Positions 1,939 through 47,803 of a stretch of 64,000 nt of DNA are shown in pieces; positions within the stretch are counted from its first letter, which is position 1, and each line of letters begins with the position of its first letter. Source of the stretch: an uncultured Bacilli bacterium (lineage in GTDB: Bacteria; Bacillota_I; Bacilli_A; RF39; UBA660); NCBI GenBank assembly GCA_934183185.1, contig CAKPSO010000001.1, positions 21,846-85,845 on the forward strand, given 5' to 3'. Both the position numbers and the translations under genes were made by a program. Under the pieces are notes generated by a model that was not told where the DNA came from, made no database searches, and was given only the letters and a program-made list of their open reading frames with translations.

Positions 1939-3546
1939 CTATATAGCTAAAATAATAAGAAATATAATTAGTAATACAATAAGTACTTCAACAAATATTT
2001 TCCAAATATATTTTAGCCATTGTCCATATGGAATATTCAAATAAGTTAAAGTTCCTATTAGAATAACACTAGTTGGTACCACTAACATAGCTAAACCATA
2101 TACTGCTTGGAATATAACTTCAACTAATGGATATAAAGTTGCATCTCCAATAACACTCATAACATATGGTACAGTGCTTTGGGCAGTATAAACAGTCTCT
2201 ACATTAAATAAACTAGCAAACATAGCTACAATAGTCATAGTTACTACATTAAGACCAGATGTTAATCCCATAATGAATTTAGTAATCATTAATTGGAATG
2301 GATGATAAGTACAAATAATAAGTACTACATAAGCAAGCATCATAGTAACTATTGGCTTAACAGCCTTACTAATTCCCTCTTCGATTCCATCAACTATATC
2401 ACTAAATTTGACGCGATATACAAGTGAAAGAATTAAAGAACCAATCATAATAAGTACAGGAATTTCAACATTAAAACTCCAAGATCCAAATTCACTATAA
2501 GTACCTAATAGTTTAGCAAAAATTGGGAATTTTCCAATTTCAAAACCATCAATAGCATTCTTTGCATCTGTAAACCAAGTAATATCAAATAATCCAGACC
2601 AATCAAATACAGCTAAAGCTAAGATAATTAAAATAAAGTCAAATATAAGTACAAAAGGCCAACATTTAACTTTTTTAGTATCATTAGCACTAACCTTTAA
2701 TATTTCATCTGAATTCTTAGCCATACTAGCTCTAGTACTCTTAGACTTAGTTTTAGTTGACTTAGTCTTAGCAGATGTCTTAGTAGACTTACCTGTTTTA
2801 GTATCCTTTTTAGTAGTTGTTGTTTTCTTAGTTGTTTTATTACCATCTTTTTTAGTAACCTCTAAAGCTTCAGATTTAACTTCTACATCAACCTTTTTCT
2901 TAGAAGTAGTTACTTCTGCTTCAACTACAGTGTTTTTAGTCTTCTTAGCATACATTAAAACATTAGCAATTAAAATGATAATGAATGCAACTAAAATAAC
3001 TATTTTAGAAACTAATTCATCCATTGTCTTAAGTCCTAGTAATTGATTTAAATAACTAACACTACTAGTACCTAATGTTGTACCAGCAAGACCAGCAGCA
3101 ACAGAACCAACAGTTACACTAGCAGCTACTAGTTTATTATATCCCATAGCTATTACTATAGAAATAACGAATGGGAAAATAAAAATCATTCCAAATGATA
3201 AACCAGTAACAGATACTATAATAGCTGTTAATGCCATTACTAATCCTAAGAAAATAGGTTCACGACCAGTATATGCATTCTTAATTTTCTCAATTAGTGT
3301 ATGATATGCAGGTATCTTATTAGCAATTCCATAAAAAATACTAACTACAAGAGCATAAACAATAACGTATGAGAAATAAGTAACAGCTACCATTGGATAA
3401 GAGAATAAATCAAATAATCCAACTTGAACCCTTTCTCCTTCTACTAAAACTGAATTGAACGATGCGCTAGGGAAAATCCAACTGCACAAAGTTACCACTA
3501 ATATCGTAGCTAAAACTACTACTGAAATATTTTTTCTTTTCTTCAT
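1939..3546 (-). CDS. Polytopic membrane protein, putative YfcC/C4-dicarboxylate-anaerobic-carrier-like transporter, with a Lys/Thr-rich low-complexity internal loop
   Basis: 535-aa ORF with a GGGAGG RBS before the ATG at 3546. Hydrophobic helices occur throughout, and the C-terminal motifs resemble the YfcC family. Residues ~205-285 form a KTTKKTTTTKKDTKTGKSTKTSAKTKSTKTKSKS low-complexity stretch. Confidence 0.4.
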   Translation of the reverse strand: MKKRKNISVVVLATILVVTLCSWIFPSASFNSVLVEGERVQVGLFDLFSYPMVAVTYFSYVIVYALVVSIFYGIANKIPAYHTLIEKIKNAYTGREPIFLGLVMALTAIIVSVTGLSFGMIFIFPFVISIVIAMGYNKLVAASVTVGSVAAGLAGTTLGTSSVSYLNQLLGLKTMDELVSKIVILVAFIIILIANVLMYAKKTKNTVVEAEVTTSKKKVDVEVKSEALEVTKKDGNKTTKKTTTTKKDTKTGKSTKTSAKTKSTKTKSKSTRASMAKNSDEILKVSANDTKKVKCWPFVLIFDFILIILALAVFDWSGLFDITWFTDAKNAIDGFEIGKFPIFAKLLGTYSEFGSWSFNVEIPVLIMIGSLILSLVYRVKFSDIVDGIEEGISKAVKPIVTMMLAYVVLIICTYHPFQLMITKFIMGLTSGLNVVTMTIVAMFASLFNVETVYTAQSTVPYVMSVIGDATLYPLVEVIFQAVYGLAMLVVPTSVILIGTLTYLNIPYGQWLKYIWKIFVEVLIVLLIIFLIILAI

Positions 3547-3624
3547 ATTAACCTCCCATATTAATTATACATACTTTTTTAGGAAAAATAAACGTTTTAC
3601 ACAAAGTTTTTAATAAATTTTAGC

Positions 3625-3651
3625 TAAAAAAAGCAGGTAACGACTACCTGC
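3625..3651 (-). terminator. Rho-independent terminator of lysS (GCAGGUAGUCGUUACCUGC followed by a U7 run)
   Basis: Perfect 7-bp stem gcaggta/tacctgc with a 5-nt loop at 3632-3651, flanked by an A-run at 3625-3631 on the plus strand, 8 nt after the lysS stop. Confidence 0.7.
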
Positions 3652-3658
3652 AAACTAT

Positions 3659-5140
3659 TTATTCTTCATTATTATCTAAAGGTCTCATTAATGGAAACAT
3701 AACTACATCACGAATACTATCACTACCAGTTAATAGTTGAACTATTCTGTCTATTCCCATACCCCAACCTGAAATAGGTGGCATACCATATTCCATAGCT
3801 GAAATATAATCATAATCCATATCCATAGCATCTAAATCACCGGCAGCTTTTAAATTAGCCTGTTCAAGTAATCTTCTTTCTTGTTCCTGTGGATCAACTA
3901 ATTCACTATATCCATTAACTATCTCTGCTCCATTAATAACTAATTGGAAACGGTCACTAATCTCTGGTCTATCATCATTACTACGAGCAAGTGGTGATAA
4001 ACTAGTTGGATGTTCAGTAAGATAAACTGGCCCTAACATATGAGGACGTGCTACCTTCTTATATAAAACATCTACTAAATTACCAAATCCTAAGTTTTCT
4101 AAAGGAACATCACTTTCGACTTCAATATGATTTTCTTTAATCTTAGCTAGTAACTTTTCCTTAGTATTATCAACATTAATATCAATATTAGCATATTTAA
4201 CTAATAAATCTCTAAAACTTACTCTACCCCAATCACCACTCATATCGACAGTTTTATCACCAACTTGAATAGTAAGAGTTCCAAATATATTCATAATAAT
4301 TGTTTGAAGCATATTTTGAATTAATTTCATATTATCTTCATAATTAAAGTAAGCTTGATATCCCTCTATCATAGTAAAATCCTGTAAGTGAGAAGCATCC
4401 ATTCCTTCATTACGGAAACATCTAGCAATCTCATATACCTTTGGAATACCTCCTACTACAGCTCTTTTTAAGTAGGTTTCTGGAGCTATTCTTAAATAAA
4501 CATCTAAATCAAGTGCATTATGATGTGCCTTAAATGGTCTAGCTGCTGCACCACTAGCTTTATTATTTAAAATAGGAGTCTCAATTTCCATATAACCAAG
4601 ATTATCAAGATAATGTCTTAATTCACGTATAAATTTAACACGTATCTGAAAACGTTTTCTAGTATCTTCATTCATTATTAAATCTACATAACGTTGACGA
4701 TAACAAGCCTCTAAATCTGTTAATCCATGAAATTTTTCTGGTAAAGGTTTTAAGGCTTTACCAAGGAAAGTAAAATTATCAGCACGTAATGTTTTTTCAC
4801 CAGTATGGGTAGTAAAGATTTCTCCCTCAGCACCTAAAAAATCTCCTAAATCAACATTACTCTTAAAGAATGCATAAGCTTCCTCTCCAACTAAATCAAT
4901 TTTAATAGATATCTGTAAATCCCCATTAATATCACGTAATTTTAAGAAACTCATTTTACCCATTTTTCTCATAAAAACAATACGACCAGCTACACGTACA
5001 CCAGTAGTACCATCATCTAACTTGCTAGCATCTTCTAAAGAATGCGTAATTTCATATCGCTCGGGATATGGATTACAGTACTCTCTAATTGCATTAATTT
5101 TATCTCTTCTAACTAATTCTTGTTCACTAAATTCTCTCAT
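3659..5140 (-). CDS. lysS: Lysine--tRNA ligase (class II)
   Basis: 493-aa ORF with GAGGTG RBS. N-terminal OB anticodon-binding region and class II core motifs (e.g. GGIPKVYEIARCFRNEG, the class II motif 2-like segment). Conserved synteny dusB-(RDD)-lysS. Confidence 0.9.
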   Translation of the reverse strand: MREFSEQELVRRDKINAIREYCNPYPERYEITHSLEDASKLDDGTTGVRVAGRIVFMRKMGKMSFLKLRDINGDLQISIKIDLVGEEAYAFFKSNVDLGDFLGAEGEIFTTHTGEKTLRADNFTFLGKALKPLPEKFHGLTDLEACYRQRYVDLIMNEDTRKRFQIRVKFIRELRHYLDNLGYMEIETPILNNKASGAAARPFKAHHNALDLDVYLRIAPETYLKRAVVGGIPKVYEIARCFRNEGMDASHLQDFTMIEGYQAYFNYEDNMKLIQNMLQTIIMNIFGTLTIQVGDKTVDMSGDWGRVSFRDLLVKYANIDINVDNTKEKLLAKIKENHIEVESDVPLENLGFGNLVDVLYKKVARPHMLGPVYLTEHPTSLSPLARSNDDRPEISDRFQLVINGAEIVNGYSELVDPQEQERRLLEQANLKAAGDLDAMDMDYDYISAMEYGMPPISGWGMGIDRIVQLLTGSDSIRDVVMFPLMRPLDNNEE

Positions 5141-21276: not shown

Positions 21277-21756
21277 CTATCTACCTGTAGAACCAATACC
21301 GCTAGTTCTAACATTATCTATATTTTCTTCATTATCAACCGTTAAGAACTTTGTAAAAACACCCTGACAAATCTTATCTCCCTTTTTTACAACATAATCT
21401 TCAGAACCATGATTTTGTAACTTTAACCATGCATGTCCCTCATTATCTAGATTATTATAATAATCAGATTCAAATACACCAACCTGATTACACATTCGAA
21501 CATTATACTTAAATCCCTGACTACTTCTAACTAAAAGAAACATAACCTCATCAGTATTCATACATATCTTAATACCAGTTGGAATTTTCTTTATTTCACC
21601 AGGTTTCAAAGTAAAATCAAATAAAGATTCAAAGTCATAACCTGCACTATGTTTAGTATTTCTCTTAGGGATATTATATGATTCATATAACTCTTTATCA
21701 TCACCTATATCCTTTTTAAATTGTTCAAAACTAATTTTCTCAAAATATCTTGCCAT
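21277..21756 (-). CDS. dut: dUTP diphosphatase-like protein (dUTPase/dCTP deaminase superfamily, YncF-like)
   Basis: LLVRSSQGFKYNVRMCNQVGVFESDYY...KKGDKICQGVF...RTSGIGSTG aligns with the YncF/phage-type dUTPase motifs (PRSS..., GVID.DY, KGDRICQ, RG.GGFGSTG). ATG at 21756 directly after a GGAGG RBS and the T-box U-run. Confidence 0.6.
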   Translation of the reverse strand: MARYFEKISFEQFKKDIGDDKELYESYNIPKRNTKHSAGYDFESLFDFTLKPGEIKKIPTGIKICMNTDEVMFLLVRSSQGFKYNVRMCNQVGVFESDYYNNLDNEGHAWLKLQNHGSEDYVVKKGDKICQGVFTKFLTVDNEENIDNVRTSGIGSTGR

Positions 21757-21765
21757 ATTACCTCC

Positions 21766-21990
21766 AAAAAAAAGCAACTATTCTAACCACATAAGGACGA
21801 ATAATCGCGGTACCACCTTAATTTATAGTATAACACTATACACTCAATCTCTTAACGCGAGTAACGAATAAATTATAAACAAATTTATTAGCTCCAGAAC
21901 CATTTATTATTGTTTCTCTATATCTACTTTCACCTAATTAGACTCTCTTAAATAGATTCCCAATAACTCTTTCCTTCAGCGCATTTATGC
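21766..21990 (-). ncRNA. T-box riboswitch leader (tRNA-sensing antitermination element) preceding dut-metG. Probable Met (AUG) specifier
   Basis: The minus-strand transcript contains AAUUAAGGUGGUACCGCG at 21807-21824, a 17/18 match to the T-box consensus AAUUAGGGUGGUACCGCG. This is followed by the terminator helix GCGAUUAUUC/GAAUAGUUGC plus U8 at 21766-21773, and then a GGAGG RBS. Upstream stem-I-like region with AGAGA motifs and an AAAUGG candidate specifier. The promoter TTGAAG-17-TATAAT lies at 22018-21995 on the minus strand. Confidence 0.75.
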
Positions 21991-27187: not shown

Positions 27188-27209
27188 AATTATTTCCCGG
27201 GAAATAATT
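27188..27209. promoter_or_regulatory. Noc-binding-site (NBS) palindrome AATTATTTCCCGGGAAATAATT (solo copy)
   Basis: Perfect 22-bp palindrome whose core TATTTCCCGGGAAATA equals the published NBS consensus. Lies in the 32-bp gap between rsmI and pth. Confidence 0.7.
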
Positions 27210-33737: not shown

Positions 33738-33744
33738 ATAATCA

Positions 33745-33835
33745 CCTATAAAAAAAGTGCACATAAATATTAAATGTTAAGGCTGCTACCTTCCAGTCCT
33801 GACCTAGTTCCATCAATATTTATTGCACAACATTA
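33745..33835 (-). ncRNA. ffs: Signal recognition particle RNA (small 4.5S type)
   Basis: The minus-strand transcript contains AGGUCAGGACUGGAAGGUAGCAGCC (orig 33781-33810). This matches the universally conserved SRP RNA domain IV (AGGUCAGGUCCGGAAGGAAGCAGCC). The flanking 5' UGUGCAAUAAAUAUU and 3' AAUAUUUAUGUGCAC arms pair into the long hairpin and are followed by a U8 run. A TTGATT/TATAAT promoter lies just upstream (33834-33868). Confidence 0.7.
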
Positions 33836-33887
33836 TAATAATATATTTTTCCAATATAATCAACTCTTTTTGTGTATAAAAATATAT

Positions 33888-33903
33888 GTTCCACGTGAAA
33901 CAT
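33888..33903. promoter_or_regulatory. parS: parS site 1 (TGTTCCACGTGAAACA)
   Basis: Exact match to the B. subtilis-type parS consensus TGTTNCACGTGAAACA, within an 18-bp perfect palindrome. Confidence 0.85.
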
Positions 33904-34050
33904 ATATTATCTATTTTTAAAAGTATTTTTTTATAATTAAATAAGGAATAATAAAGAAAATATACATTAATAATTATAAAGATATTAATCATAACGCTAT
34001 CTAATGTTAAATATAGTAATTTTATTTTAATTAAAGTGGATAATTATAAA

Positions 34051-34066
34051 TGTTTCACGTGAAACA
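34051..34066. promoter_or_regulatory. parS: parS site 2 (TGTTTCACGTGAAACA, perfect palindrome), part of composite module A
   Basis: Perfect 16-bp parS palindrome, followed after 10 bp by an NBS. Confidence 0.85.
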
Positions 34067-34076
34067 TTGTATAAAA

Positions 34077-34094
34077 TTATTTCCCGGGAAATAA
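34077..34094. promoter_or_regulatory. Noc-binding site (TTATTTCCCGGGAAATAA) of composite module A
   Basis: Perfect palindrome containing the NBS consensus TATTTCCCGGGAAATA. Confidence 0.75.
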
Positions 34095-34179
34095 TTTACT
34101 CATAAAAATTAAATTCTGATCTAGAATTAAAAAAATGAATTACAATACACATAAAATATAATATAAATTAAATAAGTAA

Positions 34180-34195
34180 TGTTCCACGTGAAACA
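34180..34195. promoter_or_regulatory. parS: parS site 3 (TGTTCCACGTGAAACA), solo
   Basis: Exact consensus parS. Shares the cattgtgtataa right flank of the composite modules but has no NBS. Confidence 0.85.
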
Positions 34196-34342
34196 TTGTG
34201 TATAACTTTTAATATTCTTTATTAACTTAATATTCAATTAATTATCAATAATCATAACCAACAAACTACATTAAAAAGCGAAAATATAATAATTAACATA
34301 AAAATTAAGTAATTCTAGTTCAATTAAAGGAATATTAGATAA

Positions 34343-34358
34343 TGTTTCACGTGGAACA
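34343..34358. promoter_or_regulatory. parS: parS site 4 (TGTTTCACGTGGAACA), composite module B
   Basis: Reverse-complement orientation of TGTTCCACGTGAAACA. 10-bp linker to an NBS. Confidence 0.85.
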
Positions 34359-34366
34359 TTGTGCAT

Positions 34367-34388
34367 AATTATTTCCCGGGAAATAATT
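34367..34388. promoter_or_regulatory. Noc-binding site (AATTATTTCCCGGGAAATAATT) of composite module B
   Basis: 22-bp perfect palindrome with an NBS core. Confidence 0.75.
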
Positions 34389-34649
34389 TACTTATAAATG
34401 TGCATTTAATTATGTTCAAATAGTGACTTATTATTTGAACATAGGTAAATTAAAAAATATTTATAATTCAAGAGAAATTTATTTTATATATTTTGCATGG
34501 AGCATATATAAAATAATTAACTATCAATAAATATTTTTGTCATAATACTAAAAACTACAGTTAAAATTTAATAATGTAATTAATCATAATAAATTTTGCT
34601 TAATAAAAATTTGAAATAAATATAATGATTAAGAGTAATAATTTATCAA

Positions 34650-34665
34650 TGTTTCACGTGGAACA
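34650..34665. promoter_or_regulatory. parS: parS site 5 (TGTTTCACGTGGAACA), composite module C
   Basis: Consensus parS. 10-bp linker to an NBS. Confidence 0.85.
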
Positions 34666-34675
34666 TTGTGTATAA

Positions 34676-34693
34676 TTATTTCCCGGGAAATAA
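34676..34693. promoter_or_regulatory. Noc-binding site (TTATTTCCCGGGAAATAA) of composite module C
   Basis: Perfect palindrome with an NBS core. Confidence 0.75.
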
Positions 34694-34824
34694 TTTACCC
34701 ATAAATATACAACTTAATGTAGATTAAATAACCTTTTATTACTTGAAAGTAAGCAAATTATTACTCATATTATTTACAATCGTAATAAAATTAAAAAAAT
34801 AATTAATGTTACAATATAAACATA

Positions 34825-34833
34825 TTATCCACA
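34825..34833 (+). promoter_or_regulatory. Perfect DnaA box TTATCCACA inside the parS array
   Basis: Exact 9-mer consensus, 16 bp upstream of parS site 6. Confidence 0.4.
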
Positions 34834-34848
34834 ATATTTTTAAAACGA

Positions 34849-34864
34849 TGTTCCACGTGAAACA
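34849..34864. promoter_or_regulatory. parS: parS site 6 (TGTTCCACGTGAAACA), solo, immediately upstream of the gyrA terminator
   Basis: Exact consensus parS. Confidence 0.85.
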
Positions 34865-34865
34865 T

Positions 34866-34895
34866 AAAAAAATGGCATATTCACGCCATTTTTTT
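34866..34895. terminator. Bidirectional rho-independent terminator at the gyrA 3' end (AAAAAAAUGGC-auauucac-GCCAUUUUUUU)
   Basis: 11-bp inverted repeat with an 8-nt loop, flanked by an A-run and a T-run. It abuts the gyrA TAA stop (34894-34896). Confidence 0.7.
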
Positions 34896-37509
34896 AATTT
34901 TCTATAGGACTTTCTCCTGTTTCATCAAGAGATTCACCCTCATCTTCTTTAATAATTGTAGAAACAGTAGCTACCTTTTGATCATCCTTTAATTTAATTA
35001 ATCTAACACCTTGTGTAGCTCTACTTAAAGTAGAAATTTGATCCATAGACATTCTCATAATGATACCATTATCAGTAATTATTACTAAATCCTCATTACC
35101 AGTAACAGCCTTTAAAGTAACCATCATACCATTTTTATCAGTTACATTTAAAGCCTTAACACCCTTACTTCCACGATGTGTTAATCTATATTCATCAATA
35201 GGTGTCTTTTTACCATATCCATTTTCAGTAACAACTAATACCTGTTCATCAGAAGTTATAATCTCACTACCAACAACTTTTGCACCATCTAAATCAATTC
35301 CACGAACACCAGATGCACTTCTTCCCATTACACGAATTTCGTTTTCCACAAATCTAACCATTCTACCATTAGAAGCACCAATAATTATCTCATTATCCCC
35401 AGTTGTCTTTCGAACAGCTATTAACTCATCATTCTCCTTTAATCCAATAGCTATTTTCCCACTACTACGAATATTATCAAATTCAGATAAATTTGTTCTC
35501 TTAACAACTCCATCCTTAGTTACAAAGAATAAATACTTATATTCGTGTTCCTTAGCACTAAGCGAAATAATAGAATTAATCTTTTCATCCTTTTCAAGTG
35601 ATAATAAATTAATAATTGGCAGTCCCTTACTTTGCCTGCTAAATTCTGGAACCTCATAACCTTTCATTCTATACACTTTTCCCTTATTACTAAAGAATAA
35701 TATATAATCATGAGTCTCCATATTTAACATTTTTTCCACAAAATCCTCTTCATTAGTTGACATACCCTTTATACCAACACCACCACGATTTTGTGTTCTA
35801 TACTCATCAGCAAGCATTCTCTTAATATAACCTCTGTTAGTCAAAGTTATTAAAATGTTTTCCACAGGTATAAGTGATTCATCCTCAATATAATCAACAG
35901 CTGTCATATCTATCTTAGTTCTACGATCATCACTGTATTTTTTCTTAATTTCTAACATTTCATTCTTAATAATGTCCAAAACCCTTTGCCCATTAGCTAA
36001 AATATCCTTATAATCAGCTATTTTAACTAATAAATCATTTAATTCAGCCTCAATCTTTCCACGTTCCAATCCAGTTAAACGACGTAATCTCATTTCAAGA
36101 ATACTGTTAGCCTGAATCTCATCTAAATTAAATCTAGACATTAAATTAGCCCTAGCATCATCATCACTCTCAGCTGCCCTAATAATACGAACAACCTCAT
36201 CAATATTATCAAGTGCTATACGCAATCCTTCTAAAATGTGGACTCTTTCCTCAGCCTTCCCTAAATCATATCTAGTTCTTCTAATAATTACCTCTTTTTG
36301 ATGATCAATATACTTAGAAATAATATCCTTTATACCCAAAGTTCTAGGAGTTTGACCATCAAGAACTAAGAAAATAATACCATATGATATTTGAAAATTA
36401 GTGTGTTTATATAACTGATTTAAAATAACCTGAGCATTAGCATCCTTCTTTAAAGTAATAGTTATTTTAATACCATTTTTTAAATCAGTATGATAATCAG
36501 AAATACCCTCTATCGTCTTATTATGTACTAATTCAGCAACCTTATTTTTTAGTTCCATAGTATTTACACCATAAGGAACCTCATCAATAATAATACAACT
36601 ATGATTACCCTGTTCTTCAATAGTAGCTTTACTACGAATAGTAATAGATCCTCTACCAGTTTCATAAGCCTTTTTAATACCAGAATTTCCTAAAATAATA
36701 CCACCTGTAGGAAAATCAGGACCTTTTATGTATTGCATCAATCCTAAAGTATCAATTTCTGGATTATCTATATAAGCAACACAACCATCTATAACCTCGC
36801 CAAGATTATGTGGAGGAATATTAGTAGCCATACCAACAGCAATTCCCATTGAACCATTAACAAGAACATTAGGAAATCTCGAAGGTAAAACCCTAGGTTC
36901 CTTTCTAGTAGCATCAAAGTTGTCATCCATATCAACAGTATCCTTATTAATATCCCTAAGCAATTCTAGTGATATCTTAGCTAATCTTGACTCAGTATAA
37001 CGCATAGCAGCTGCGCCATCACCCTCAATATTACCAAAGTTACCATGTCCATCAATTAACATATATCTTTGGTTAAAATCCTGAGCTAAACGCACCATTG
37101 CCTCATAAATAGAACTATCTCCATGAGGATGATAATTACCCATAACTTCTCCGACCGTTTTAGCGCTCTTTCTATGAGGTTTGTCAGGAGTATAACCTGA
37201 TTCATACATAGACCATAAAATACGTCTGTGAACAGGCTTTAAACCATCTCTAAGGTCAGGTAAAGCACGTGATTTAATAACACTCATCGAATATTCCATA
37301 AAAGATGTCTTAACTTCATCAACGATATTATTATGATCTAACCTATCTCTTTCATGAAAATATCCACTAAAATTATTACCAATATTCATTTTATCCACAT
37401 CTTGTTGAGAATTATTATCATTAATAATAGTATTAGAATCACTATTCTGCTCTTGACTATCATCACCTGCTCTATTTAATAACTCATTTAAATCATCTTT
37501 ATTATCCAT
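34894..37509 (-). CDS. gyrA: DNA gyrase subunit A, with a ~45-aa N/D/Q-rich N-terminal extension
   Basis: Canonical [25 protein letters not shown], an active-site Tyr region, and C-terminal beta-pinwheel repeats. The ATG at 37509 has a GGGTGGTG RBS, so the N-terminal low-complexity extension appears genuine. Confidence 0.95.
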
Positions 37510-40669: not shown

Positions 40670-40712
40670 CACACAAAAAAAGAAAAAGCAGCTATTTTTT
40701 TTCTGCTTTTCT
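40670..40712 (-). terminator. Rho-independent terminator of the ComK-like gene (AGAAAAGCAG-loop-CUGCUUUUUCU followed by a U7 run)
   Basis: Inverted repeat agaaaaagcag/ctgcttttct at 40681-40712 overlapping the last codons of the ORF, with an A-run at 40674-40680 on the plus strand. Confidence 0.6.
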
Positions 40713-41144
40713 ACTATTTATTAAATATTTTAATCGTGTAGCTCTCAAAATCTGATTATCAAGTGAATTTTTTGAAGTATCTATAGTTATATGCTTACCA
40801 TTAATAAGTGTAACATTAGCCTTATTATTCTTTTTTTCTATGGAACTTATAGAATTCAAAGAAAACCAACCACAACACTTAGTAATAGGAGAGGCCGTTG
40901 GAAAGAATATTAATTCATTACTCTCCTCTACTATAATTGGAACTTTATAATTACATCCCAATAGTTTTCTACTACCATCTACTCTACCTTGATAACTACT
41001 ACCAAAGTAACTACAACTATTTTCCATTACTTCATAGGCATGTTCCCCGATAATAAAATCACTATCATTCTCAATAACTCTAGTTTTACCATTTTTTAAG
41101 CCTATAATAGCTAAAGTATTATTACCTAATTCATATTTACTCAT
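40692..41144 (-). CDS. comK: ComK-family competence transcription factor-like protein
   Basis: NSCSYFGSSYQGRVDGSRKLLGCNYKVPIIVEESNELIFFPTASPITKCCGWFSL aligns with B. subtilis ComK (RSCRFFGSSYAGRKAGTYEVTKISHKPPIMVDPSNQIFLFPTLSSTRPQCGWISH). ATG at 41144 with an AGGGGGA RBS. The ORF-track start is a GTG. Confidence 0.6.
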   Translation of the reverse strand: MSKYELGNNTLAIIGLKNGKTRVIENDSDFIIGEHAYEVMENSCSYFGSSYQGRVDGSRKLLGCNYKVPIIVEESNELIFFPTASPITKCCGWFSLNSISSIEKKNNKANVTLINGKHITIDTSKNSLDNQILRATRLKYLINSRKAEKK

Positions 41145-41243
41145 TATTTTTCCCCCTAACACTTCTAATTCGAATTAGTGCCATATATTATAATCACACT
41201 AGATGTCGAATAATAAGTATTTATGGGTAATATCTAACTTTTA

Positions 41244-43882: not shown

Positions 43883-44259
43883 ATTATCCCTCCCCTGCAT
43901 AAGAATAATTTGTAAGTCATATTGTAACTTAATTTTGTGGAAAAATAAATAGATAAAATTAACTTTTTTTAAATACACAGCATGTCCACAATATATTCAC
44001 ATATTTTTCAACAAAAAATCATCTATATTATATAAGAAAATTGATTAATTATCAACAGATTAGAAAAAAATATAAAATAACATGTTGAAAAAGTTATGCA
44101 CATGCCTGTGGAAAATGTGGAAAACTAAATTCATAGATAGGATTACTTCTTAAACAATATTAAAAAATTTAAAATTTTAAACATTTATGTGGAAAATAAT
44201 TGACAAAAATGTATTTTATCTTATATACTAATGTAGATTTTACGACTGGAGGTGGAATT
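43883..44259. promoter_or_regulatory. oriC: oriC: DnaA-box cluster between dnaA and rpmH (point of gene-orientation switch)
   Basis: TGTGGAAAA at 43936-43944, 44107-44115, 44116-44124 (a tandem pair) and 44188-44196. TGTCCACA at 43983-43990. AT-rich spacer. rpmH promoter TTGACA(44200-44205)-N17/18-TATACT. Confidence 0.8.
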
Positions 44260-44382
44260 ATGAAAAGAACTTATCAACCAAATAATAGAAAAATGAAAAA
44301 GAAACATGGATTTTTTGCAAGAATGAAGTCTAACGTATTAAATCGTCGTAGAGCAAAAGGTCGTAAAAGATTATCTAAGTAA
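44260..44382 (+). CDS. rpmH: 50S ribosomal protein L34
   Basis: [40 protein letters not shown] is canonical L34. GGAGGTG RBS. The ORF-track start at 44200 is an upstream in-frame ATG sitting within the promoter. Confidence 0.9.
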
Positions 44383-47779: not shown

Positions 47780-47803
47780 AATTATTTCCCGGGAAATAAT
47801 TTT
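47780..47803. promoter_or_regulatory. Noc-binding-site palindrome AAATTATTTCCCGGGAAATAATTT (solo copy) upstream of the mnmG promoter
   Basis: 24-bp perfect palindrome with an NBS core, about 35 bp upstream of a GTGTATAAT -10 element at 47834-47842. Confidence 0.7.

Follow-up and report, generated by a model that had tools for sequence, protein, structure and literature searches.

Among duplicated DNA-binding proteins that have evolved insulated specificities, ParB and Noc are the textbook pair, with ParB serving segregation and Noc division control. In Bacillus subtilis, the parS sites of the ParABS system (Spo0J/ParB-parS) are scattered over hundreds of kilobases. The present analysis concerns a 64,000-nucleotide stretch of contig CAKPSO010000001.1 from an uncultured Bacilli bacterium (hereafter the window), in which the spacer between gyrA and ffs carries six parS sites and three Noc-binding sites (NBS). 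This array shares with B. subtilis the identical 16-bp parS consensus and an origin-proximal position, and the window also encodes a 296-aa protein with the specificity residues, cytidine triphosphate (CTP) motifs and ParA-binding peptide of B. subtilis ParB, in a soj-spo0J operon lying beside noc and rsmG as it does in that species. Unlike B. subtilis, all six parS detectable in the window are packed into 1 kb, and among them lie predicted sites for another ParB-family protein, a 362-aa Noc-type paralogue. The resemblance to the Noc-NBS system of B. subtilis and Staphylococcus aureus extends to an identical NBS core, to the position of the gene (rsmG-noc-soj-spo0J), and to the protein itself, which shares Q173, K179 and R201, the Noc-like N-terminal, DNA-binding and C-terminal domains, and the CTP-binding residues. 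Compared with B. subtilis Noc, the paralogue is without about 26 N-terminal residues (helix α1, helix α2 and a loop) that are needed for occlusion (PMC8429893). It further departs from canonical Noc in having S at position 184 instead of K, a variable disordered linker of ~110 aa, a score against the curated Noc model TIGR04285 (288.1 bits) that is below the cut-off of 315, and predicted sites that, within the origin-proximal DNA covered, are concentrated at the putative centromere; the NBS of the canonical system are scattered round the chromosome and missing near the terminus.

In Caulobacter, Streptomyces, Corynebacterium and Myxococcus, several close parS sites near oriC form one ParB loading zone; to our knowledge, these dense clusters hold sites for one protein only and occur in phyla without Noc. 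Among plasmid centromeres, sopC of F consists of twelve 43-bp repeats, while parS of P1 is a composite of BoxA/BoxB with IHF, an example of a centromere for which a further protein, with phased sites of its own, can be required. Like sopC-type centromeres, the array in the window is built of repeated modules, each with a ParB-family palindrome, and in some related loci (L064, L007, L010, L095 and the parS-only L201), though not in the window, the repeats run head to tail. Unlike sopC and P1 parS, the array is chromosomal, each unit carries two ParB-family specificities, and the modules lie ~300 bp apart. A literature search returned no description of a natural parS–NBS juxtaposition, nor of Noc in Mollicutes, RF39 or these lineages, and nothing relevant for Clostridium. 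The parts (parS, NBS, and the ParB and Noc CTP clamps) are already known, and what is new is their combination: interleaved, phased sites in a single putative centromere, shared by a large clade that has a Noc without the membrane helix.

Sites were located with the 16-bp pattern TGTTNCACGTGAAACA for parS and the exact 16-mer TATTTCCCGGGAAATA for NBS (consensus ATTTCCCGGGAAAT), and chance expectations were derived from dinucleotide shuffles of the whole window. Six parS match the pattern with zero mismatches on one strand (0.02 expected), all of them in the gyrA–ffs spacer, and no further parS was found in the window even with two mismatches allowed. Five exact NBS are present (0.04 expected), three in the same spacer and two on their own elsewhere (Table 1). 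A preliminary description of this DNA had reported six consensus parS in about 1 kb, which the scan bears out, with the first site starting at 33887 rather than 33888; its three array NBS are likewise present, while the two lone sites had gone unmentioned. It had also placed the array in non-coding DNA between the gyrA terminator and ffs, about 9 kb from oriC and about 18 kb from soj-spo0J. The listing of open reading frames (ORFs; the longest in the 1,054-bp spacer is at most 59 aa), the terminator hairpin and the Rfam match to ffs agree with this, and the distances were measured as ~9.6 kb and ~17–18 kb, respectively. The array is considered origin-proximal because the GC skew changes sign near 44 kb, beside dnaA.

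Three of the parS are followed, after exactly 10 bp, by TTATTTCCCGGGAAATAA, as first described, so that the two dyads are 27 bp apart in 3/3 modules. The modules form a 66-nt direct-repeat family with 83–91% identity, of which a decayed fourth copy, 61% identical to module 1 and with both sites destroyed, can still be recognized. The modules had been called tandem, but in the window they are dispersed repeats spaced 292 and 307 bp apart; Tandem Repeats Finder detected no long-period tandem array in the window, and the modules are not head-to-tail copies.

On the basis of its parS-type residues R173/G201 and N-terminal LGRGL ParA-binding motif, the 296-aa protein can be regarded as a standard ParB, in line with its earlier assignment. 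The specificity residues of the 362-aa paralogue are Q173, K179, S184 and R201 (QKSR), and its best PDB matches are the Noc structures of Geobacillus and B. subtilis. Q173 reads adenine 1 and R201 reads cytosine 6 of the NBS, given K at position 179 or 184 (Jalal 2020, PMC7383237), and R89 and N121 of Noc are needed for CTP binding (PMC8429893); the residues equivalent to R89 and N121 are invariant in the paralogue family, as are GERR and ENLQR. The last ~42 residues match positions 214–255 of the Noc model (NCBIfam; E = 7e-4). The earlier naming of this protein as Noc therefore stands as to type, given the QKSR residues and the PDB matches, but does not hold for canonical Noc: its alignment begins at residue 27 of Geobacillus thermoleovorans NocΔCTD, and at residue 3 of the NΔ26 construct, so that it starts where the engineered NocNΔ26 starts, without the N-terminal amphipathic membrane-targeting helix (10 aa) and helix α2. 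An alternative upstream start that would restore the membrane helix is excluded by an in-frame TAA 6 nt before the ATG, which is preceded by a good ribosome-binding site. Lacking this helix, the paralogue is unlikely to act by the known DNA-to-membrane tethering; in B. subtilis, nucleoid occlusion is impaired when Noc has lost the helix (PMC8429893).

The short N-terminus is seen in all of the best 120 homologues, 116 of which have the motif PNRFQPR at offset 14 and 119 the QKSR signature. Among the best 150 representatives of 50%-identity clusters, which are 58–89% identical across the N-terminal and DNA-binding domains, nearly all begin 14–21 aa before PNRFQPR, and 109 of the 112 whose sequence fits the signature pattern carry QK[N/S/T/A/G/...]R. 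Judged from these sequences, the missing membrane helix is a trait of the whole protein family. The representatives range from 221 to 834 aa, and N, E, P and S abound in their linkers. With at least 150 clusters at 50% identity, the helix-less Noc-type family is a large one, and it includes proteins as long as 834 aa (P0241) and 798 aa (P0184).

The distribution of the array among relatives was assessed with two sets of loci. The first was selected by pattern (parS-N(0-30)-NBS, one genome per species) and comprises at least 120 blocks from at least 119 assemblies (L001–L120), with one locus per genome. The assemblies are almost all metagenome-assembled genomes of low-GC, uncultured gut "Bacilli", Tenericutes or Mollicutes, and named ones include Clostridium sp. 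CAG:710, CAG:417, CAG:1000, Candidatus Scybalousia and Candidatus Onthousia. Each of the blocks listed is a cluster of 1–9 parS and 1–9 NBS, and the locus is syntenic, since gyrA (106), tadA (96) and dnaX (90) are present in most of the 120. The second, unbiased set consists of 80 metagenome loci (L122–L201) chosen by the GyrA C-terminus alone, at 58–88% identity, and spacer counts were taken from the 57 in which gyrA is followed by tadA. At least two parS are present in 44/57 of these spacers and at least one NBS in 32/57. The density of parS is 4.17 per kb in the spacer against 0.064 elsewhere in the unbiased loci, and that of NBS is 1.22 against 0.042 per kb, a 29-fold difference. When reduced to distinct arrangements, both site types occur together in 41/68, and as a pair within 60 bp in 22/68.

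The closest relative, L122, has GyrB 95% and GyrA 90% identical to those of the window. Only the NBS, the short spacer and the parS have been kept between the two, while the remainder of the gyrA spacer has diverged and one NBS of L122 has decayed. Arrangements differ even among close relatives, and module copy number, a comparison that had been proposed as a check, does so too. True tandem composite arrays were found in L007 (82-bp units, seven of each site), L064 (75 bp), L010 (64 bp) and L095 (76 bp). Pure tandem parS arrays lie downstream of gyrA in L201 (eight, 61 bp) and L157 (four, 105 bp), and pure tandem NBS arrays occur in L147 (six, 105 bp), L149 (four, 82 bp) and L142 (three, 150 bp), on contigs that end early. 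An NBS stands first, at the gyrA- and oriC-proximal end, in 23 of 37 unbiased arrays (13.2 expected; significant), but this excess is absent from the pattern-selected set (39/108 against 38.9 expected), where the commonest order is P-N-P (parS, NBS, parS and so on). A bias seen in one set only may reflect shared ancestry rather than function. Several public metagenome contigs labelled Muribaculaceae or Bacteroides helcogenes, including L004, L005, L011, L023, L029 and L039, carry the low-GC Bacilli-type gyrA-array-tadA locus; their GC content is mostly 25–28% (37% in L004), and mis-binning or mislabelling is suggested.

Sites of the general form were collected across 0.96 Mb of loci, giving about 790, and these fall into two classes, with 481 parS, 304 NBS, none that mixes half-site types and at most five of any one partial type. 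Composite sites for a ParB/Noc heterodimer, with one half of each kind, are ruled out by this count. Conservation reaches beyond the cores, with parS extending to an 18-bp palindrome (A/T flanks in 98%) and NBS to a palindrome of ~24 bp whose A/T flanks are conserved across more than 100 species. The dyads of adjacent parS and NBS are separated by distances that peak near 26–27, 36, 46–48 and 56–57 bp, a ladder of ~10.5 bp, with R of 0.24–0.25 at periods of 10–11 bp in the pattern-selected set (jitter-null p < 0.001). In the independent metagenome set the ladder falls at 26, 35, 46, 58 and 70 bp, with R = 0.49 at period 11 (p = 4e-4). The same test found no such periodicity in parS–parS spacing, and the sequences between parS and NBS are mostly unrelated between loci. 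With a phase of ~0.4–0.5 of a turn, the two dimers would sit on helix faces that are roughly opposite. The lengths of tandem composite units are near whole helical turns (61–64, 75–76 and 82–84 bp).

These observations are best accommodated, in our moderately confident view, by regarding the gyrA–ffs spacer as a centromere that is shared across the lineage and evolves fast, and on which ParB and a Noc paralogue without the membrane helix are loaded next to each other. On sequence evidence, the chromosome very probably has its centromere and its zone of ParB loading here, probably the principal one of the organism and probably its only one; very probably, too, the Noc-type paralogue binds the NBS. 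The co-location of parS and NBS looks selected rather than accidental, because the sites are conserved, are duplicated as a unit, are phased, and, in the case of NBS, are enriched 29-fold in the spacer. In the proposed scheme, ParB-CTP clamps would nucleate at the six parS, slide over the origin-proximal region and work with Soj and presumably SMC. The paralogue, with its NBS-reading residues and intact CTP motifs, would nucleate at the array NBS, which lie 27 bp from three of the parS on roughly the opposite helix face, so that both clamp families would load within the same kilobase. Its likeliest task would be that of a second centromere-resident clamp that marks or organizes the origin/centromere domain, and, by way of the long disordered linker or of partner proteins, it might influence where division takes place or the initiation of replication. 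Published links make such a role in organizing or monitoring the origin domain plausible, as Spo0J and Noc together prevent Z rings at mid-cell when replication is stopped at an early stage (PMC6852036), and S. aureus Noc, which spreads over 8–10 kb, restrains initiation (PMC5540599). The array would evolve by duplication and decay of units, made up of parS alone or of parS with NBS, under selection that keeps sites of both kinds perfect. A compact centromere for two clamps had already been suggested in the preliminary description, and gains from the fixed position in at least 119 assemblies, the site-only conservation relative to L122, the absence of hybrid sites and the phasing, with binding still predicted from sequence.

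Several points weigh against this interpretation. Twenty-five of the 57 related spacers (~44%) are without NBS, and a pair within 60 bp is present in only about a third of distinct arrangements, so that the coupling of parS to NBS would be dispensable or easily rewired. Spacing between the two sites varies from 16 to more than 60 bp between species, and the phasing statistics treat species as independent when some arrays share ancestry. NBS also occur outside the array, as the two lone sites of the window and within dnaX in relatives, and a paralogue without the membrane helix has no known effector mechanism.

The main rival to a selected two-protein centromere would have this as an ordinary multi-parS centromere in which NBS gather because it offers scarce, roomy non-coding DNA near the origin, with ParB and the Noc-like protein acting independently and the latter marking origin-proximal DNA generally. 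The lone NBS at 27191 and 47783, those within dnaX of relatives, the NBS-free spacers and the wide variation in arrangement and spacing all speak for such an explanation. However, NBS fit into gaps of 32 bp and even into coding DNA, and so space is not limiting; parS and NBS are phased with respect to each other in two independent sets, whereas parS sites are not phased among themselves; the two are duplicated as one unit in the window and in L007, L010, L064 and L095; and in the unbiased loci NBS are 29 times denser in the spacer than elsewhere. Weakened in this way, the rival is considered unlikely, though it is the only one of real weight.

A second rival is neutral repeat expansion, by which NBS would be functionless mutated copies of parS (two changes per half-site) from within a duplicating array. 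Duplication and decay of modules do occur, as seen from the repeats, the decayed copy and the copy numbers that differ between close relatives; the repeat-driven expansion of a parS-NBS module, put forward earlier as the alternative, is in this respect partly true and compatible with a selected centromere. For a functionless origin, four coordinated substitutions per site would be needed, yet no mixed half-sites and no more than five of any partial type were found, the NBS are perfect with A/T flanks conserved to ~24 bp across more than 100 species, and the window encodes a cognate NBS-type protein whose conservation is extreme. A purely neutral origin is strongly disfavoured and appears very improbable. 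Slightly more improbable still is that the spacer is a transcribed small RNA or processing locus, or a set of dispersed mobile repeats: the palindromes could fold as short hairpins and the AT-rich region has many promoter-like hexamers, but their number (11) is below the shuffle expectation (15.3), no Rfam family beyond ffs was matched even at E<=1, the sole terminator-like hairpin in the spacer is that of gyrA, and conservation is limited to palindromes of 16–24 bp, without flanking structure. The Rfam and terminator results led to rejection of a small RNA or terminator locus; a mobile repeat was rejected on the single locus at a fixed syntenic position in each assembly (among at least 119) and on the absence of array copies from 2.9 million viral contigs.

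Tentatively, the preferred reading of a two-protein centromere can be taken further. In an order-level clade of uncultured gut Bacilli, ParB and the helix-less Noc, phased on opposite faces of the DNA, might form a mixed CTP-clamp partition complex, and this could perhaps be near the ancestral state of Noc, as a duplicate of ParB resident at the centromere, with sites born within parS arrays, pre-dating the membrane tether and the dispersed sites of Bacillales. This is a possible but doubtful extension. Whatever its merit, the locus provides a natural system in which ParB and Noc sites are interleaved and phased by helix face at one probable centromere, together with a Noc copy that is without a feature thought essential to Noc function. 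Here one could ask directly whether CTP clamps of two families, when they share the same DNA, cooperate, compete or block one another, and the system could reveal a Noc-type function without membrane binding, as well as the origin of Noc. For a large group of gut bacteria that is of medical interest but uncultured, the probable centromere is also defined, and compact two-colour parS/NBS arrays could serve as DNA-labelling tools.

Table 1. Sites, repeat modules and genes of the predicted centromere and its surroundings (positions in the window).
Feature	Position	Strand	Remarks
ffs (small signal recognition particle RNA), array boundary	33742..33839	-	Rfam, 58 bits
parS 1 (TGTTCCACGTGAAACA)	33887..33902	.	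exact match; ~50-65 bp upstream of ffs start
Composite module 1 (parS + 10-bp spacer + NBS + shared flank)	34044..34109	+	66-nt direct-repeat family
parS 2, perfect palindrome TGTTTCACGTGAAACA, in module 1	34051..34066	.	exact match
NBS 1 (TATTTCCCGGGAAATA within 22-bp palindrome AATTATTTCCCGGGAAATAATT)	34078..34093	.	dyad 27 bp from parS 2 dyad
parS 3, without NBS partner	34180..34195	.	exact match
Composite module 2	34336-34401		same 66-nt family
parS 4, in module 2	34343..34358	.	exact match
NBS 2	34370..34385	.	27 bp from parS 4
Decayed fourth module copy	34484..34549	+	61% identity with module 1; neither site intact
Composite module 3	34643-34708		same 66-nt family
parS 5, in module 3	34650..34665	.	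exact match
NBS 3	34677..34692	.	27 bp from parS 5
parS 6, against gyrA terminator hairpin	34849..34864	.	exact match
gyrA terminator hairpin	34865-34896		abuts parS 6
gyrA, array boundary on oriC side	34894..37509	-	stop at 34894
Lone NBS in 32-bp pth–rsmI gap	27191..27206	.	exact match
Lone NBS in mnmE–mnmG gap, ~3.5 kb beyond oriC on the other side	47783..47798	.	exact match
Presumed oriC (dnaA-rpmH spacer)	43979..44260	.	TGTGGAAAA DnaA-box variants and GC-skew flip
Noc-type ParB paralogue, 362 aa	51142..52230	+	predicted CTPase N-terminal domain, QKSR helix-turn-helix, linker, Noc-type C-terminal domain
Soj/ParA ATPase, 262 aa	52336..53124	+	
ParB/Spo0J, 296 aa	53102..53992	+	R173/G201, LGRGL, GERRxKA, ENLQR, ParB_C domain

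A DnaA box is a candidate third component of the module. Motifs of the type TTATNCACA adjoin five of the six parS (33871–33879, 34197–34205, 34360–34368, 34667–34675 and 34825–34833), and the 10-bp parS–NBS spacers of the window read TGTG(C/T)ATAA, being filled by the DnaA-box-like motif. In L122 the parS–NBS spacer is TTTTCCACA (TGTGGAAAA), a variant that recurs in the boxes at the presumed oriC of the window. Across loci, TTATNCACA is enriched about 9 times within 60 bp of parS, a comparison that is confounded by base composition. Counting against a DnaA box in the module are its presence near only ~11% of parS, the confounding effect of intergenic composition, and the many matches to TTWTCCACA in coding DNA. 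Nine of the 16 matches to TTWTCCACA in the window (1.9 expected) lie between 33018 and 37399, all on the + strand and mostly in coding sequence (the end of dnaX, tadA and gyrA); codon bias may explain them, or they may be a genuine group of DnaA boxes that flanks the putative centromere.

Exact NBS are found within the dnaX frame of many relatives, where they are read as the peptide ISREI in a variable linker (DnaX residues ~345–390), as in L122 (9802), L128 (9393), L130 (9854), L132 (10124), L162 (9854/9911) and L185 (3188–3330, within the ORF at 2138–3793). The dnaX of L185 carries three NBS on a 63-bp (21-aa) repeat, and none is present in the window's own dnaX.

The window, with a GC content of ~28%, is part of a 92-kb metagenome scaffold (ENA ERZ28613749) of an organism known from metagenomes only. 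Its gene order is pth-rsmI-...-holB-recR-dnaX-tadA-ffs-array-gyrA-gyrB-recF-comK-like-dnaN-dnaA-oriC on the left and oriC-rpmH-rnpA-yidC-jag-mnmE-mnmG-rsmG-HD-noc-like-soj-spo0J-mscS on the right. The ComK-family gene (40692–41162, - strand; Pfam E = 7.6e-39) sits between recF and dnaN, and interrupts the otherwise classic dnaA-dnaN-recF-gyrB-gyrA cluster. At 21790–21988 on the - strand, upstream of the ORF at 21277–21777, there is a T-box leader (Rfam, 100 bits).

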